From Phascolarctobacterium sp. (lineage in GTDB: Bacteria > Bacillota > Negativicutes > Acidaminococcales > Acidaminococcaceae), in NCBI GenBank assembly GCA_034086985.1, contig JAXDZG010000002.1:50944-114943 (forward strand): a DNA stretch of 64,000 bases. Direction: 5' to 3'. The position numbers were made by a program, and so were the translations under genes. The notes beneath the pieces were generated by a model that did no database searches, was not told the origin of the DNA, and worked only from the letters and a program-made list of their open reading frames with translations. Position 1 is the first letter of the stretch. Every line of letters starts with the position of its first letter. This document shows, piece by piece, positions 9,360 through 26,856 of this stretch.

Positions 9360-10247
9360 ATGAAAGGTATTGTATTAGCAGGTGGCAGTGGTACTAGGCT
9401 GTACCCACTGACTATGGTTACAAGTAAGCAATTATTGCCGGTTTATGATAAGCCGATGATTTACTATCCTTTATCAACTTTAATGCTGGCAGGAATTAGA
9501 GAAATTCTAATTATCTCCACGCCTACTGACACCCCTAGATTTGAAGCTCTGCTGGGTGATGGCAGTGATTTCGGTTTGAAATTATCTTACAAAGTGCAGC
9601 CTTCTCCTGATGGCTTGGCTCAGGCTTTCTTGCTTGGTGAAGAGTTCATTGGTGATGATGCTTGTGCCATGGTGCTTGGTGATAATATTTTTTATGGTAA
9701 TGGCTTTGGTAAAATTTTGCGTGCTGCAACTCAAGATGCTGAAGAAAATGGACGTGCCACAGTCTTTGGTTATTATGTAAATGACCCTGTGCGCTTTGGT
9801 GTCGTTGCTTTTGATGAAAAGGGCAAGGCTACTTCTATTGAGGAAAAGCCCCAGCAACCTAAGTCTAACTACGCTGTTACAGGCCTGTATTTCTATCCTA
9901 AGGGAGTGAGCGCTAAAGCTCATGAAGTTAAGCCGTCTGCTCGTGGTGAATTGGAAATTACTACCTTAAATGAAATGTATTTGCATGAAGATATACTCGA
10001 CGTGCAGCTTTTAGGTCGCGGTTTTGCTTGGCTTGATACAGGTACTATGAATAGCCTTGTTGAAGCTGCAGAGTTTGTGAAAATGGTATCTGAGCGTCAG
10101 AGCATCACTATTTCTGCATTAGAGGAAATAGCTTATCTTAATAAATGGATTGATAAAGATAAGCTGATGGCCAGCGCTGAGCGTTATGGCAAGAGTCCCT
10201 ATGGACAGCATTTAAAACGTGTAGCTGAGGGTAAGATAAAGTATTAA
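9360..10247 (+). CDS. rfbA: Glucose-1-phosphate thymidylyltransferase (RmlA)
   Basis: [40 protein letters not shown]. Confidence 0.97.
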
Positions 10248-21573: not shown

Positions 21574-21792
21574 TTACTGAATGGCTAGCTCCTTCATCAG
21601 CTCTTTACGATAAGTCTTATCTGTGATTACGCGGTCAACATCCTCATTTCTACCCATAGATTTAAGCTTGGTAAGTAAGGCAGCGAAGCGGTCTTCACCA
21701 ATTGCTAAACCACGAGCTTCACCAGTAGCTTCACCTTCGTTATAGCCTTCGGCTCTACTAATCTTCCGAACGAGATCTAAAGTTTTACCCAT
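21574..21792 (-). CDS. Candidate in-frame intragenic small protein (RpnS-like antitoxin, 72 aa)
   Basis: AAAGGAGAUG SD-like sequence 8 nt before in-frame ATG (MGKTLDLVRK...) inside the rpn ORF. Confidence 0.5.
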   Translation of the reverse strand: MGKTLDLVRKISRAEGYNEGEATGEARGLAIGEDRFAALLTKLKSMGRNEDVDRVITDKTYRKELMKELAIQ

Positions 21793-22425
21793 AGTCGTGT
21801 CATCTCCTTTAACTTTTCGCATAGCATCAGCCAAGACAGGATAGTGCATCTCTTCTGGCTTAGTACATTTAAAATCGCTAATTAATTTACCAATATCGTC
21901 ATTGCCGATATAGTTGTTATTTACATAGAGAATATGAGCCCTGTCCTCAAAAGGAATGCCTAGATTGGTGACAGTGCGTTCTATCGGATAGAGAGGCAAA
22001 TTGCGCTTCCATCTATCGCCAGTGAAAAAGATTACATATGTTGTAGGCAAAGCCTTAAAGTCAGCCTTGATGGGCAGATTATGTACATCAATAGAGCTGC
22101 TGTAATAGCGAGCACGTTCAGGGGTAGCACCGCTAGTCAGGTTTTGCACTTCAACATTATAGATGTTATTGTTATCATCCTTAGCGAGAATATCTAAACG
22201 CACAGACCTATAGCCATGATTCCTTAAGGGATACTCAGTTTTTGTGCTCTCAACAGTGAGCTTCTTGTCCTTTAAAAGTACATTGAGCAGAAGCTGGGAG
22301 CAAGCCTTTTCTTTAAAGACTTTTTTCAAGCAATGATGGTCTGTGAGCTTAGTCTCTTGGGCAATCTTTTTGGTAATAGCCTTGCGAACCTTTTTGTCGG
22401 ACAGGTCAAGTTTGATCATTTTCAT
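21574..22425 (-). CDS. Rpn family (PDDEXK_2) recombination-promoting nuclease / putative anti-phage toxin
   Basis: DHHCLKKVF, VRLDILAKD, NVEVQ, RARYYSS.ID, C-terminal EG..EG...G repeats. Confidence 0.88.
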   Translation of the reverse strand: MKMIKLDLSDKKVRKAITKKIAQETKLTDHHCLKKVFKEKACSQLLLNVLLKDKKLTVESTKTEYPLRNHGYRSVRLDILAKDDNNNIYNVEVQNLTSGATPERARYYSSSIDVHNLPIKADFKALPTTYVIFFTGDRWKRNLPLYPIERTVTNLGIPFEDRAHILYVNNNYIGNDDIGKLISDFKCTKPEEMHYPVLADAMRKVKGDDTTMGKTLDLVRKISRAEGYNEGEATGEARGLAIGEDRFAALLTKLKSMGRNEDVDRVITDKTYRKELMKELAIQ

Positions 22426-22590
22426 TATAACACGATCCTTTGCAATTTACTAGCGCTAGGGGTGGATTTTTGTAGGTGCCCGACCTACTATAGTCATAAT
22501 AGCACAAATAGTCAGATAAATCAAGCCTTAATAAGAAAATTTTTATATATTAGAAAATTACAAGAGCGTTTTGCGCTTCGAGGTACTACC

Positions 22591-25500
22591 ATGTCGATTT
22601 TTGACAGCTTCACCAGGAGGAACAGTTTAATAAAGACACTGCGCTTCAGGCTAGAGCCCATGTTTGGGACTAGTGAGCAGCTGGCAAAAATAGGCGTGCT
22701 GGAGCGCGATCAAGAGCGCAGCGAGAACTGGGAAACAGTGCGCGCAGTGCTGCGCCGCGTGGATGCGTCGTTTGTAGAAAAGGCGCTCACAGAAGAAGTG
22801 GATTTGGACTGGCGGCCGCTAGCAACAGCATTAAAAGCAAAGAATGCTGTATACGAAAATGAAAAAAATAATAGTAATGAGATAGAGCTGTCACAAGATG
22901 AAAGTGGCAAGAAAGCTTTGCTACAGTCAGAAAAGAATAGGGCTGAGATTAGCAAAGAGCTCGTAAAGCAGCAGGCAGAGATGCGCAAAGCAGTGGCGAA
23001 GCTGCTGACAAAGCATGGCGATTATAAGAACATTACCAATCCGACCAAAGCCATAAAAATGGCGGCGGAGGCAGTACAGAGTGATGCTGAAGCGCGAGCG
23101 GTGGCCCAGTATCTGCGCTTTACTACAGTGTTAACAGATTATTTTGCCCATAAAAAAGCCTATTTTGGCCATGAAGTGAGAAGGACAACAATCGCTTACC
23201 GCATCGTGCACGTAAATTTTCCTATCTATCTGGAAAACTTGCGCTTAATGAAGCAATATGCTCAGGCTGGGTTGGACTTACAAAATAAATTTATCTTTAC
23301 TTATTTAGAAATTAATGGCTACAACAAATGCTTGGTGCAGAGTCAAATCGATAGCTATAACCAAGCTGTTGGCCAAATCAATAAACAGCTGCGGCGGCTA
23401 TATGCCGAGCACAAGCTACCGGAAACTTTAAAAGGTGTGCCACTAAAGCTCAAGGCGCTGCAAAAGCAAGTGCTGAGCGTGGGCGAGGAAAAGCCCATAG
23501 AGTTTGCTAAATACGCGGACATGCAAGCAGCAGTGCAGGGCTTACAGGAAGCGCTGGCGCAACGGTTCAGTGGCTTAGAGCAAGCCTTCAGTCAATGTGA
23601 GGGAGAGCTGCAAGATGAGTACGCAGCTAAGCAAGAGACCGTAACAGAAGCCTCCAAGGCGCTGCTTTTTAGAGAGCAAGAGGTAGCGAGTATCGTCTCC
23701 ATTAAGGATTATCTAACGGCAGTGCTAGCCTTAAGGCGTTTCGTGAAAGGAGTGCTTCGTGAAGAGGTACAGCAATATAAAGGGCAAGCTCAGAGCTCTG
23801 AGAATGCTCTAGTAGCTGAAGATGCTTCGCAAGCTGATGCTGAGGCCAAGCAAAGGCTTTCTCTCGCCTGCAGTGAAGCCTGGGAAATATTAGCTAGTGT
23901 ACCTCAGCTATACGCCAAGGTGCGCAATTACTTAACCCGCAAGCCTTATAAGCAGGAGAAAATTAGACTCTTTTTTGACTGCGCTGCCTTTGGTAAGGGC
24001 TGGGATGTGAATAAAGAGGCCGCTTATTTAGTAAACTTGTTTAGGCGGGACAGTCATTACTATCTTGGCATCAGGCGCCAGGGAGCGAAAATAGATTTCG
24101 ATGCCATAGCGACTAAATGTACCGAGCAGGAGCCATGCTACGAAAAGATGGTCTACAAAGCCTTTGATTTCATCAAGGGCATGCCCGCTGTAGTCTTTTC
24201 CAAAATGATTTTGCAAAAATTTGTAGACGGTGCTAGTGAAGTGGTGCTAGAGGGTGAGCAATTCAGCCAGCCTTTAGTAGTAACCAGAGCGGATTTTGAA
24301 CAAAAATACTATGTAGAGAATGGTAAGCTGCGGGAGCGCGAGCCTGAGGATGTGCCCTATCTCAAGCAGTATCTAACTAAAACAGGGGATGAGGCAGGCT
24401 ATAAAGCGGCAGTGTCCCAGCGCATAGAGCTAGCCAAGCGTTTTATAAAAGCCTATAAAACCTTCGCCTTTTTTGATATGTCCAAGCTGCGAGCCACCCA
24501 AGACTATGACTCTTGGATAGAATTCATTACCCATGTGAACGAATTTACCTATGGCTTAAGCTGGCAAAAAAATTCCGAAGCAAGCCTAAAGCAGTTAGTG
24601 GAAAAGGGTGACTTGTTTCTATTTCGCTTGGAGAACCGCGACTTTATGCGCGATGCCAGCGATGAAGTAAGTGGGGACGAGCAAACCCAGCTGTGGCGCG
24701 CCTTGTTTAGCCAGCTAAATCAAGAAGATCGCATCCTGAAGCTTTTGGGCGGTGTGGAAGTGTACTACCGTCCGGCTTCCGCGCCTGCCAAGGTAAGTCA
24801 CAAGCAGGGCAGTGTTATCGTCAACAAAATAGACAGCGAGCATAATCCCCTGCCAGCGGAGCTCGTGCGTAATATTAGTCACTATTTAAACGGCAAAACT
24901 AAAAAGCTCTTACCAGAAGCGGCTCAGCTCATGGCCCAAGACAAAGTAAAATGGAAACAAGCGGCTCAGGATATCATCAAGGATAAACGCTATACCCAGG
25001 ACCAAATGCTAGCCCATTTTCCCATAGCCATCAACTATCGCTGTGCTAGCAACGATTATAGCTTCAACAGGGATGTGCGAGAGTTGCTGCAGGGGAATAC
25101 CGCAGTCAATATTTTGGGACTGCATTTGGGTGGCGACAATTTGGCTGAGGCAGTCATTCTTGACCAAAACGGCAAGCAGCTTTATGCCAAGGCTTATAAT
25201 CAATTCAATAATTATAATTACTACCAAGCTCTTGTATTGCGAGATGAAGCAAGGAAGCAGGCCCAACGAAACTGGCTGCAACAGCAAAAGATTAAGAATC
25301 TTCGCCAAGGCTTTATGGCAGCCCTTACTAATGAAGTGTGCAAGCTCATTTTAAAGTACAACGCCGTGGTTGTGCTGGAGGACTTCAGTAAGAACAAGGG
25401 TAGTAGGGGAGCGGCGCCCAAGCTCTATATGCAGTTTGCGCTGAATCTACTGCATAAGCTTAATTACTTAGTACTCAAGGAACGCGAGCCCATAGAGCCA

Positions 25501-25764
25501 GGAGGACTGCTGCAGGGCTATCAGCTTGCTCCCAAGGTAGTAAGCCTAGCGGGCTTTGCCAACCAAATTGGCTGCGTTCTTTTCGCCTTACCTAGCAATG
25601 GGGAGGGCGAGCCTGAGGACATGTCCGAGGCCTATTTATTGGCCTTAAAGGGCTGCCTCATGGTGCAGCGCATCCACCAAGCCAAGAGCTTGGATAAAGT
25701 AGATTTTATGCTAAAGCAAAAACAGTGGCTTGGCTTCCTCAAGGAGCGAGACTTCAGCTCCTAA
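22591..25764 (+). CDS. cas12a: Cas12a (Cpf1)-like protein, predicted nuclease-dead and lacking the Nuc domain; orphan, 1057 aa
   Basis: MSIFDSF...SLIKTLRFRLEP (WED-I), IAYRIVHVNFPIYLEN (REC1), YAKVRNYLTRKPY, GWDVNKE, LFLFRLENRDF, IIKDKRYT..HFPIAINY, NAVVVLE, GGLLQGYQL, AYLLALKG are colinear with AsCas12a; RBS GAGG precedes ATG 22591. Confidence 0.93.
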   Translation: MSIFDSFTRRNSLIKTLRFRLEPMFGTSEQLAKIGVLERDQERSENWETVRAVLRRVDASFVEKALTEEVDLDWRPLATALKAKNAVYENEKNNSNEIELSQDESGKKALLQSEKNRAEISKELVKQQAEMRKAVAKLLTKHGDYKNITNPTKAIKMAAEAVQSDAEARAVAQYLRFTTVLTDYFAHKKAYFGHEVRRTTIAYRIVHVNFPIYLENLRLMKQYAQAGLDLQNKFIFTYLEINGYNKCLVQSQIDSYNQAVGQINKQLRRLYAEHKLPETLKGVPLKLKALQKQVLSVGEEKPIEFAKYADMQAAVQGLQEALAQRFSGLEQAFSQCEGELQDEYAAKQETVTEASKALLFREQEVASIVSIKDYLTAVLALRRFVKGVLREEVQQYKGQAQSSENALVAEDASQADAEAKQRLSLACSEAWEILASVPQLYAKVRNYLTRKPYKQEKIRLFFDCAAFGKGWDVNKEAAYLVNLFRRDSHYYLGIRRQGAKIDFDAIATKCTEQEPCYEKMVYKAFDFIKGMPAVVFSKMILQKFVDGASEVVLEGEQFSQPLVVTRADFEQKYYVENGKLREREPEDVPYLKQYLTKTGDEAGYKAAVSQRIELAKRFIKAYKTFAFFDMSKLRATQDYDSWIEFITHVNEFTYGLSWQKNSEASLKQLVEKGDLFLFRLENRDFMRDASDEVSGDEQTQLWRALFSQLNQEDRILKLLGGVEVYYRPASAPAKVSHKQGSVIVNKIDSEHNPLPAELVRNISHYLNGKTKKLLPEAAQLMAQDKVKWKQAAQDIIKDKRYTQDQMLAHFPIAINYRCASNDYSFNRDVRELLQGNTAVNILGLHLGGDNLAEAVILDQNGKQLYAKAYNQFNNYNYYQALVLRDEARKQAQRNWLQQQKIKNLRQGFMAALTNEVCKLILKYNAVVVLEDFSKNKGSRGAAPKLYMQFALNLLHKLNYLVLKEREPIEPGGLLQGYQLAPKVVSLAGFANQIGCVLFALPSNGEGEPEDMSEAYLLALKGCLMVQRIHQAKSLDKVDFMLKQKQWLGFLKERDFSS

Positions 25765-25774
25765 ACAATATGTC

Positions 25775-25818
25775 AATACCTACTAGTTAGGCGAAGTATG
25801 TGTGTTAAAATTGTAGGC
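25775..25818 (+). CRISPR. Single degenerate Cas12a-repeat-like hairpin plus possible spacer (mini crRNA candidate)
   Basis: AATACCTACTAGTTAGGC vs canonical handle AATTTCTACTNNNGTAGAT, with compensatory T-A to C-G stem change; 11 nt after the cas12a stop; not a multi-repeat array. Confidence 0.45.
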
Positions 25819-25875
25819 TTGGATGCTTAAACAAAATGCTTTAAGACGGCCGCGAAAATTGTTCATAAAGACCAA

Positions 25876-25917
25876 TAAAAAACCGCTACACCCCAGATGA
25901 GTGTAGCGGTAATTTTT
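25876..25917. terminator. Bidirectional terminator between cas12a-like and fba
   Basis: ACCGCTACAC / GTGTAGCGGT stem with A-run before and T-run after. Confidence 0.8.
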
Positions 25918-25926
25918 ATGCGGTGA

Positions 25927-26856
25927 TTACAGTCTGTTGGAGCTGTTCAGCACGTCGCGCATCTTGTGAGCAACCATGTCTTGGATTGCTTGACGAGCGG
26001 GCTTCAGGTATTGACGAGGATCGAAATCGCCGGGGTTCTCTACGAAATGCTTGCGGATGGAAGCAGTCATAGCCAAACGCAGGTCGGTATCGATATTGAT
26101 CTTGCAAACGCCGAACTTGCCAGCGCGCAGCAGCATATCCTCGGGAACGCCTTGAGCGCCGTCTAATTTGCCACCGTACTTGTTGCATTCTTCAACGAAG
26201 GCAGGGATAACGGTGGAAGCACCGTGCAGTACCAGGGGGAAGCCGGGCAGCAGATTGGTGATTTTTTCCAGACGAGCAAAATCCAGCTCCGGTTTGCCCT
26301 TGAATTTATAAGCGCCATGGCTGGTGCCGATAGCAATAGCCAAAGAGTCGCAGCCGGTGCGCTCTACGAATTCTACTGCTTGGTCGGGGTCGGTGTAGGT
26401 GGCGTCCTTAGCAGCAACCTTAACAGCGTCCTCAACGCCTGCCAGCTTGCCCAATTCAGCCTCAACAACAACGCCGCGCTCGTGAGCATATTCAACTACA
26501 CGACGGGTCATTTCGATGTTTTCTTCAAAGGGATGCTTGCTGCCGTCGATCATAACGGAGGTGAAGCCGCCATCAACGCAGGCCTTGCAGATTTCAAAAT
26601 CTTCGCCATGGTCCAGGTGCAGGCAGATGGGCAGACCAGTGTCCTCAACAGCAGCCTCAACCAGCTTCATCAGGTAAATGTGGTTAGCATACTTACGAGC
26701 GCCGGCAGAAACCTGCAGAATCAGCGGGGATTTTTCGGCTTGGGCTGCAGCCACAATACCTTGGATGATTTCCATGTTATTCACGTTGAAGGCACCTACT
26801 GCATAGTGGCCTTCATAAGCTTTTTTGAACATTTCGGTAGAAGTTACTAAAGGCAT
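25927..26856 (-). CDS. fba: Class II fructose-1,6-bisphosphate aldolase
   Basis: GAFNVNN, LHLDHG, SVMIDGS, VEAELG, AIGTSHGAYK, VLHGAS, KINIDTD. Confidence 0.97.
   Translation of the reverse strand: MPLVTSTEMFKKAYEGHYAVGAFNVNNMEIIQGIVAAAQAEKSPLILQVSAGARKYANHIYLMKLVEAAVEDTGLPICLHLDHGEDFEICKACVDGGFTSVMIDGSKHPFEENIEMTRRVVEYAHERGVVVEAELGKLAGVEDAVKVAAKDATYTDPDQAVEFVERTGCDSLAIAIGTSHGAYKFKGKPELDFARLEKITNLLPGFPLVLHGASTVIPAFVEECNKYGGKLDGAQGVPEDMLLRAGKFGVCKINIDTDLRLAMTASIRKHFVENPGDFDPRQYLKPARQAIQDMVAHKMRDVLNSSNRL

Follow-up and report, generated by a model that had tools for sequence, protein, structure and literature searches.

A solitary Cas12a-repeat-like element 3' of a predicted nuclease-dead Cas12a derivative in Phascolarctobacterium: a candidate self-matured guide RNA

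Recent work has shown that RNA-guided transcription factors occur naturally among the nuclease-dead relatives of TnpB and Cas12f, and a comparable arrangement built on Cas12a may be present in the 64-kb stretch of Phascolarctobacterium sp. DNA analysed here (contig JAXDZG010000002.1; the whole stretch is called the window), where a Cas12a-derived gene of 1057 aa (22591-25764, plus strand) is followed by a solitary Cas12a-repeat-like element at 25775-25858. The closest described RNAs are the CRISPR RNA (crRNA)-like RNAs, or crlRNAs, of type V-A systems (CreR in hosts, CracrVA1 in phages), which are built of psi-R, psi-S and a terminator and mature to a 19-nt handle with a 21-nt guide (10.1101/2024.10.29.618823). 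These direct Cas12a to bind without cutting, cleavage being avoided since their complementarity to the cas12a promoter is only partial (~10 nt; 10.1101/2024.10.29.618823). The element in the window shares with them a single psi-R in which the handle hairpin is retained, followed by one spacer-like segment and a hairpin, with no array. However, the crlRNAs serve the nuclease-active Cas12a of a full V-A locus, lie upstream of the gene and target the cas promoter next to a protospacer-adjacent motif (PAM), whereas here the protein is predicted to be dead and lacks the Nuc domain, the element is placed 3' of the gene, its core finds no match in the promoter of that gene and the 3' hairpin has no U-tract.

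Individual features are also found in other families. TldR proteins (PMC10705468) are likewise RuvC-inactivated relatives of an RNA-guided nuclease, with a fixed guide gene at the 3' end and no array, and they are thought to repress transcription, flagellin and opp being known targets (PMC10705468); they are nevertheless TnpB-sized (~400 aa) and use a long omega-RNA scaffold with the guide at its 3' end, in contrast to the 1057 aa and short 5' handle seen here. The type V proteins dCas12f-sigmaE (PMC13472631), Cas12k, Cas12m and Cas12c bind DNA without cutting and have taken on new roles, as we would expect of the present protein, but they belong to other Cas12 lineages, depend on trans-activating crRNAs or long scaffolds, and have partners (a sigma factor, Tn7 machinery) or true arrays, whereas no conserved partner gene was seen at the loci of this clade. 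Racr RNAs (PMC10651486) are also solitary repeat units outside any array; they ride phages and plasmids to trap host Cas proteins, whereas each copy of the present element is tied one-to-one to a dead effector gene. In the literature that could be searched we found neither this clade nor its RNA described; one survey there only remarks on Cas12a branches with altered catalytic sites, and although Cas12a is the best-studied type V enzyme, no equivalent of TldR or dCas12f derived from it has been described in those papers.

We propose, with a probability of roughly 0.58, that 25775-25858 (~85 nt) encodes a single crRNA-like RNA of the adjacent nuclease-dead, Nuc-less Cas12a derivative. Judged by its conservation, the element is functional, and it is of Cas12a-repeat origin; a role as a self-matured guide would be the best explanation. 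The strand of the RNA, its co-transcription with the gene, its processing, its binding by the protein, its guide function and the binding of DNA by the resulting complex are all inferred.

The homology of the window protein to Cas12a spans the WED, REC, PI and RuvC regions. The open reading frame ending at 25764 matches the Pfam families RuvC_1 (3.5e-43) and REC1 (2.8e-20), the PADLOC Cas12a profile matches at 4e-193 up to about profile position 1022 of 1241, and phmmer against solved Cas12a proteins gives 1.8e-108, with AsCas12a, from the same bacterial family, among the best (2.5e-99). The start is set at ATG 22591 (MSIFDSF...), because homologues begin MSIF... there, behind a conserved GAGGTA ribosome-binding site; the start of the longest frame, at 22333, is 258 nt too early, and a frame beginning there would overlap the start of the divergent gene at 21574-22425. 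In alignments with AsCas12a and other solved Cas12a proteins, and with relatives of 1230-1350 aa, the window protein retains WED, REC1, part of REC2, PI and the RuvC fold, while the rest of REC2 is missing. The RuvC-I Asp has become His (GIDRGE to GLHLGG) and is His, Arg or Tyr across the whole clade; the RuvC-III Asp (DANGAY in canonical Cas12a) is lost, and this position is not conserved in the clade. The RuvC-II Glu is therefore the only residue of the catalytic triad still present. A gap of ~190 residues between the FxxP motif and RuvC-III marks the deletion of the Nuc region, and no match to PF18510 (Nuc) was found in the window protein, whereas all relatives of ~1270 aa have one. No CRISPR array was detected in the window by Tandem Repeats Finder (TRF), a repeat finder or a covariance model, and no cas1, cas2 or cas4 lies among the called neighbour genes of the window gene or of any homologue locus. 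Set against canonical AsCas12a with its repeat AAUUUCUACUCUUGUAGAU, the locus thus shares WED, REC1, PI, the RuvC fold, the RNase residues and the AAU, CUACU and UAG of the handle, but lacks two of the three catalytic carboxylates, Nuc, part of REC2, an array and cas1/2/4. On these grounds the protein is not a working Cas12a but a truncated derivative predicted to be nuclease-dead, and since it is dead and Nuc-less, its putative RNA cannot be an interference crRNA.

The site that processes precursor crRNA has fared differently from the DNase site. Its His, Lys and Lys, corresponding to As H800, K809 and K860 (As numbering counted on the alignment), are kept in the window protein as VSHKQG, VNK and IIKDKRY, and across the clade both Lys are present in 14/14 members and the His in 11/14, the other 3/14 having Tyr.

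The element lies close behind the gene. The stop codon TAA (25762-25764) is followed by a gap of 10 nt (25765-25774) without a terminator and variable among homologues, and the degenerate handle AATACCTACTAGTTAGGC (psi-R, 25775-25792, plus strand) begins at the 11th base after the stop. Its 18 nt comprise an AAUA tail of four unpaired bases ahead of the stem, the stem CCUA (25779-25782)/UAGG (25788-25791), the loop CUAGU and a final C. Compared with the canonical AAUU-UCUAC-loop-GUAGA-U, the AAU tail, CUACU and UAG are kept, in 18 nt instead of 19, with a 4-bp stem and an outer pair that is C-G in place of U-A. The plus strand continues with a 16-nt conserved guide-like core (psi-S, GAAGUAUGUGUGUUAA, 25793-25808; also written GAAGUAUGUGU(R)UU) and an A/U-rich variable tail (25809-25815), GAAGTATGTGTGTTAAAATT occupying 25793-25812 and GTAGGC 25813-25818. 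A second conserved hairpin (25816-25851) has outer pairs GGC/GCC and an inner 6-bp stem CUUAAA (25826-25831)/UUUAAG (25840-25845) around an 8-nt loop, and the covariance-model match ends with the semi-conserved tail GCGAAAA (25852-25858; GAGAAAAT in other lineages). The first-pass annotation, made from the letters of this stretch, had placed the motif where we find it, and its coordinates and strings are all correct, as are the retained handle bases and the U-A to C-G change that it described; the inactivated, Nuc-less protein and the second hairpin were not part of it.

The 3' hairpin has no U-tract, and a terminator stands 30 nt further on, where a 12-bp hairpin is preceded by an A-run and followed by a U-run (25882-25919). 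Its G+C-rich stem (25882-25910) is the called terminator of a convergent, minus-strand class-II aldolase gene (25927-26856), and on the plus strand it continues AAUUUUUAU; the same hairpin is likely to end the transcript of the cas gene and the RNA as well. Plus-strand terminators follow the element at three homologue loci (L002, L004 and L028), and at L002 and L004 the next gene is co-directional.

Comparison of homologues, which had been suggested as a check, provides the evidence that the element is not a chance likeness. The loci come from a clade of ~1000-aa, Nuc-less proteins that are 45-89% identical to the window protein, all named ones being metagenome-assembled genomes (MAGs) of Phascolarctobacterium, and 13 distinct variants of the element were compared. 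Wherever a locus extends as far as the 3' end of the gene, the element is present once, directly 3' and on the strand of the gene, which upholds the claim of a conserved, single Cas12a-repeat-like unit. Mean pairwise identity is 0.92 over its first 34 nt and 0.71 over the remainder, against 0.60 in the last 120 nt of the coding sequence, 0.46 in the gap between stop and motif and 0.50 in the next 90 nt downstream. The handle is near-invariant: it varies at two loop positions, the sole stem change (A to G in L029) gives a U.G pair, and the 4-bp stem is kept in 13/13 variants. Conservation begins exactly at AAUA in all of them, and as Cas12a cuts four bases before the stem, to give a mature V-A handle of 19 nt (10.1101/2024.10.29.618823), this coincidence was counted in favour of a crRNA-like RNA. 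In the inner stem of the second hairpin 92% of cells are paired, several of the pairs being G.U.

The handle is also rare. The 18-mer occurs once in the window, where 0.13 matches would be expected at up to three mismatches, and of eight occurrences of a 19-mer in 596 Gb of genomes seven lie directly 3' of a homologue, the eighth being a chance match without the rest of the element. Neither orphan copies of the element nor second copies or a hidden array were found (TRF, repeat finder and covariance model; one copy per locus). A single repeat-like unit adjoining a decayed cas gene might suggest the non-functional leftover of a decayed CRISPR array, an idea that we find scarcely credible given 92% identity over 34 nt in 13 lineages between flanks at 46-50%, and given the conserved position and spacing.

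It was left open in the first-pass annotation where a guide would begin. A guide starting directly after the handle, at 25793, fits: the next 16 nt are conserved, and the second hairpin starts about one Cas12a spacer length past the handle (23 nt in the window, 20-32 nt overall and typically 20-26 nt). The core has the consensus G(A/C)A(G/C)(U/A)AUGU(G/A)U(G/A)U(U/A)(A/G)(A/U), with single substitutions at positions 2, 4, 5, 10, 12 and 14-16, each in individual lineages. The competing suggestion, in which CCTAC (25779-25783) pairs with GTAGG (25813-25817) and the guide starts further on, does not survive the comparison, as the partner reads ATAGG, ATGAG, TAAGG or TATGG in homologues while CCTAC is invariant, with no compensation.

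Nor does the promoter that had been raised as a caveat. Here TGTTAAAAT (25803-25811) would be the extended -10 box of a separate small RNA of ~100 nt starting near 25818, and the TGn-TAAAAT match is indeed present in the window and in its nearest relatives L001 and L017. Other lineages, however, have TGTATTGATTTTT, TGTATATTATTTA or TGTATAAAATTTT at this place, a consensus scan finds no promoter-like site in 25500-26100, and the invariant handle upstream would be left unexplained, all of which makes this promoter highly improbable. What stands of the original proposal is therefore the conserved, Cas12a-repeat-derived element with no terminator between it and the stop; the long-range pairing and the promoter fall away. 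Stop and handle are 8-14 nt apart in 12 variants and 58 nt apart in L029, where an A/T-rich stretch lies directly ahead of the handle; because of this stretch we considered an own promoter for L029, whose RNA may have one.

Folding energy contributes little to the argument. The 4-bp handle hairpin alone has -2.3 kcal/mol (z = -0.6), which is not unusually stable, and it is for its conservation and not for its energy that the element is held not to be a chance product. Rfam returned nothing at gathering score for the element, with noise alone at E up to 10, and in the whole 64 kb no family reached gathering score (no tRNA, rRNA or riboswitch). Whether the guide core pairs instead with the 5' arm of the second hairpin was judged by eye, and such pairing was rejected, the substitutions not being compensatory.

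The strand, too, has to be argued from substitutions. Read on the minus strand, 25775-25808 would be a solitary, full-length CRISPR repeat of ~34 nt (UUAACACACAUACUUCGCCUAACUAGUAGGUAUU), either a relic or a Racr-like RNA decoy. The conserved block (~34 nt) is indeed as long as a Cas12a repeat, the minus strand has GUAGGU at its end, which is closer to GUAGAU, and -10-like A/T-rich strings can be seen by eye just upstream on that strand at several loci. Yet only 8/16 handle positions match, compared with 11 on the plus strand (counted on the sequence), and neither the AAU tail nor the U that follows the 5' arm is kept. The G.U pairs in the L029 handle and in the second hairpin fit the plus strand only and would become A.C on the other, the supposed 'spacer' would run antisense to the 3' end of the gene itself and the clade has no terminator for it, and the plus-strand terminators that follow the element in L002, L004 and L028 point the same way. 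We thus regard the minus-strand repeat as quite unlikely, even with one further point in its favour from a plasmid-like relative, where the handle is followed, in the minus-strand direction, by a strong hairpin whose U-run exists on that strand alone.

That relative also provides the most revealing comparison for the origin of the element. In a profile search of 1.84 billion representatives the Nuc-less clade gave one full-length 50% cluster, and the next-best matches were P0037 (1264 aa, 948 bits) and P0038, with ordinary Cas12a at 585 bits or below. P0037, three relatives of it and P0038 keep the Nuc domain and all read GINRGE, the RuvC-I Asp being replaced by Asn; the P0037 clade is 36% identical to the window protein. 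The P0037 gene is carried by a 14-kb contig (L035) that we take for a plasmid-like replicon because it bears Rep3, iterons, a MobA/MobL relaxase and DnaB, at least 10 copies of an 18-nt iteron (GGTTACTTTTTGTCAT core) flanking the Rep3 gene at 380-2730. Directly 3' of the P0037 gene, and nowhere else on the contig, is a single near-canonical handle AAUAUCUACUUAUGUAGAG, without an array, which matches at 14/16 specified positions and folds as the AsCas12a handle does (-4.8 kcal/mol). A 6-bp hairpin with an 8-nt loop (GUGCAA/UUGCAU) follows, of other sequence and in the same geometry, 50 nt from the handle start against 51 in the window. This shows that one repeat handle placed 3' of a Cas12a gene with an altered catalytic site is an ancestral arrangement, and that the degenerate motif of the window descends from it. 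Homology between the guide core and the sequence after the L035 handle was considered but is not taken as shown, as the similarity, striking at first, is not significant on shuffling (p 0.02-0.13). The two clades probably carry different guide segments. Between stop and handle, L035 also has a 12-bp hairpin (9403-9434; -21.5 kcal/mol, z = -8), which may be an antisense terminator or a protector of the 3' end of the processed mRNA.

Gene and element together occur in at least eight different chromosomal contexts, among them the ends of polysaccharide loci, toxin-antitoxin pairs, a PD-(D/E)XK_2 gene and a mobile-element-like region, and as the contexts differ, the element travels with the gene and not with a neighbour. 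Such mobility could also mean that the conserved sequence is a DNA-level site, a recombination site or cassette end kept for movement and not for transcription. In keeping with this, similarity between loci ends ~15 nt before the ATG and ~25-30 nt after the second hairpin, and a gene of the PD-(D/E)XK_2 transposase family is the divergent neighbour in four contexts. However, the other end of the cassette has no matching sequence, the covariance model finding one copy per locus; the 5' half of the element is a Cas12a handle, near-canonical in the plasmid relative; and wobble-type substitutions are tolerated. A DNA-level site is accordingly very unlikely in our judgement. Elsewhere the clade is scarce: JGI metagenomes yielded three loci of it only, neither the Nuc-less clade nor P0037/P0038 was found in viral contigs, and PLSDB plasmids contained distant canonical Cas12a only.

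A fixed guide should have a target, and the proposal that the spacer be matched against genome and phage sequences led to none in the window, the 186 kb of related loci or IMG/VR. No target was found in the window with a 20-mer at up to three mismatches or with a 12-nt seed, in all the related loci with 16-mers at up to three mismatches, or on the plasmid-like contig L035; and no seed match of at least 6 nt with a T-rich PAM occurs in the 450 nt upstream of any of the 13 genes. A match with three mismatches recurs within the 5' end of the gene itself; it lacks a PAM, is confined to close relatives and was set aside. In IMG/VR, 16-mers gave 7-8 unrelated matches each, and TTTN plus seed gave 59 raw matches in ~33 unrelated contexts; a match shared by a family of 12 contigs falls inside a small ribbon-helix-helix-like open reading frame. 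As the carrier DNA searched amounts to ~250 kb (the window plus the 186 kb), no more than roughly one tenth of a carrier genome, the missing target is absence of evidence.

The same result is one reason to consider a cis-acting element, in which the protein would control its own amount by binding, and perhaps cleaving, the handle of its mRNA, and in which RNA structure or protein contacts, instead of target pairing, would account for the conservation of the 16 nt and the hairpin. The retained RNase residues would suit this role. The core is also nearly the same in proteins that share only 45% identity, and in both paralogues of one genome, so that a structural or autoregulatory function is conceivable. 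RNAalifold moreover pairs the core with the handle in a long hairpin (AUAC.UACU/AGUA.GUGU; 98.5% of cells paired). This hairpin fits 11/13 variants and is broken in L029 and L030, the only two testing substitutions, and in both the short hairpin becomes the minimum-energy fold; we rejected it as the fold of the element, although it may still form in the free RNA. A protein of ~1000 aa with WED, REC, PI and a whole RuvC scaffold also exceeds what an autoregulator would need, and the distance to the second hairpin is that of a Cas12a spacer. We consider the cis-acting element unlikely, while ranking it first among the alternatives.

Several further observations weigh against a self-matured guide RNA. 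Three clade members with Tyr at the RNase His (P0019, P0021 and P0022, at loci L029, L010 and L011) carry the handle unchanged, which means that self-processing cannot be universal. The window handle has lost the innermost C-G pair and the G of GUAGA, its stem has 4 bp against the canonical 5, and ~11/16 specified positions match the handle AAUUUCUACU-loop-GUAGAU. Its hairpins are no more stable than shuffled controls, and the homologue comparison, which bears out the conservation of element and hairpin, shows no compensatory double substitutions in the handle among the 13 variants; covariation therefore cannot prove the fold, which is supported by conservation and homology. Lineage-specific substitutions at positions 2, 4 and 5 of the core hit the presumed seed, and only chance-level or unrelated hits to the core were obtained in all sequence searched. 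Where one genome holds two paralogues, their handles are identical and their 16-nt cores nearly so, an odd finding for a regulator, and the L035 hairpin at 9403-9434 has its U-run on the minus strand only, with no minus-strand gene downstream.

We tentatively propose the following mechanism for the crRNA-like RNA. It would be transcribed with the gene, as its 3' untranslated region, and the retained WED/RNase pocket of the protein would recognise the degenerate handle (AAUA-CCUA-loop-UAGG-C). In most lineages, those with the His intact, the protein may cut just 5' of AAUA and release handle and guide, the next ~16-23 nt (GAAGUAUGUGUGUUAA...) representing the fixed guide, while the hairpin at 25816-25851 could close the RNA and protect its 3' end. 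The complex would then bind a complementary DNA site without cutting. Because it could bind but not cut, it would act as a repressor or blocker of one conserved sequence, in a host locus or a mobile element. In its broadest form, to which we give a little short of even odds, this model describes a natural 'dCas12a' domesticated in Phascolarctobacterium, with one hard-wired, self-matured crRNA in its 3' untranslated region, that binds one conserved DNA site as a transcription factor or mobile-element silencer, the plasmid-borne, Nuc-containing clade with Asn for Asp being an intermediate.

The surroundings of the gene offer some additional observations. Two genomes carry two paralogues each, L012 and L015 in MAG HGM14017 and L014 and L019 in MAG SARD11_bin.025, every one with its own RNA. 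The cassette is often found at the end of a cell-envelope polysaccharide locus. In the window the divergent neighbour at 21574-22425 is a gene of the PD-(D/E)XK_2 transposase family, and at L006, L010, L029, L030 and L031 the divergent upstream neighbours are a toxin-antitoxin pair (HEPN/MNT, ParE/Phd or BrnT/BrnA), a lone RelB antitoxin or PD-(D/E)XK_2; taken together, such surroundings are typical of variable islands. At L004 (2200-5941), and also at L005, a TnpB-type gene (OrfB_IS605 with Cas12f1-like_TNB) lies upstream of the homologue between two genes for sigma-70 fragments, one with regions 2-3 and one with region 4, with an SNF2 helicase further upstream and a peptidase M23 downstream of the homologue; this mobile-element-like region recalls sigma-TnpB associations in the literature. 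Finally, the divergent promoter region between the PD-(D/E)XK_2 and Cas12a-like genes of the window contains the inverted repeat GTAGG-TGCCCGA-CCTAC (22472-22488), whose arms are kept in L001 with a different loop (GTAGGGGCTTAACCTAC). Its 3' arm and the following bases (ACCTACTA) equal 8 nt of the 5' part of the handle, and it could be an operator or a product of chance.

If the proposal is correct, TldR and dCas12f would gain their first counterpart derived from Cas12a, and single-transcript designs that combine Cas12a with its crRNA would have a precedent in nature. The clade would offer a Cas12a scaffold that is compact (~1000 aa), dead by nature and paired with an orthogonal 18-nt handle, and it may show effector and guide naturally joined on a single transcript. 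It would also make a stepwise path visible, from active Cas12a through a form with Asn for Asp that keeps Nuc on a plasmid-like contig to a Nuc-less form on the chromosome. Phascolarctobacterium, the carrier, is a common commensal of the human gut, and finding the target would identify a gene or mobile element subject to RNA-guided control in that habitat.

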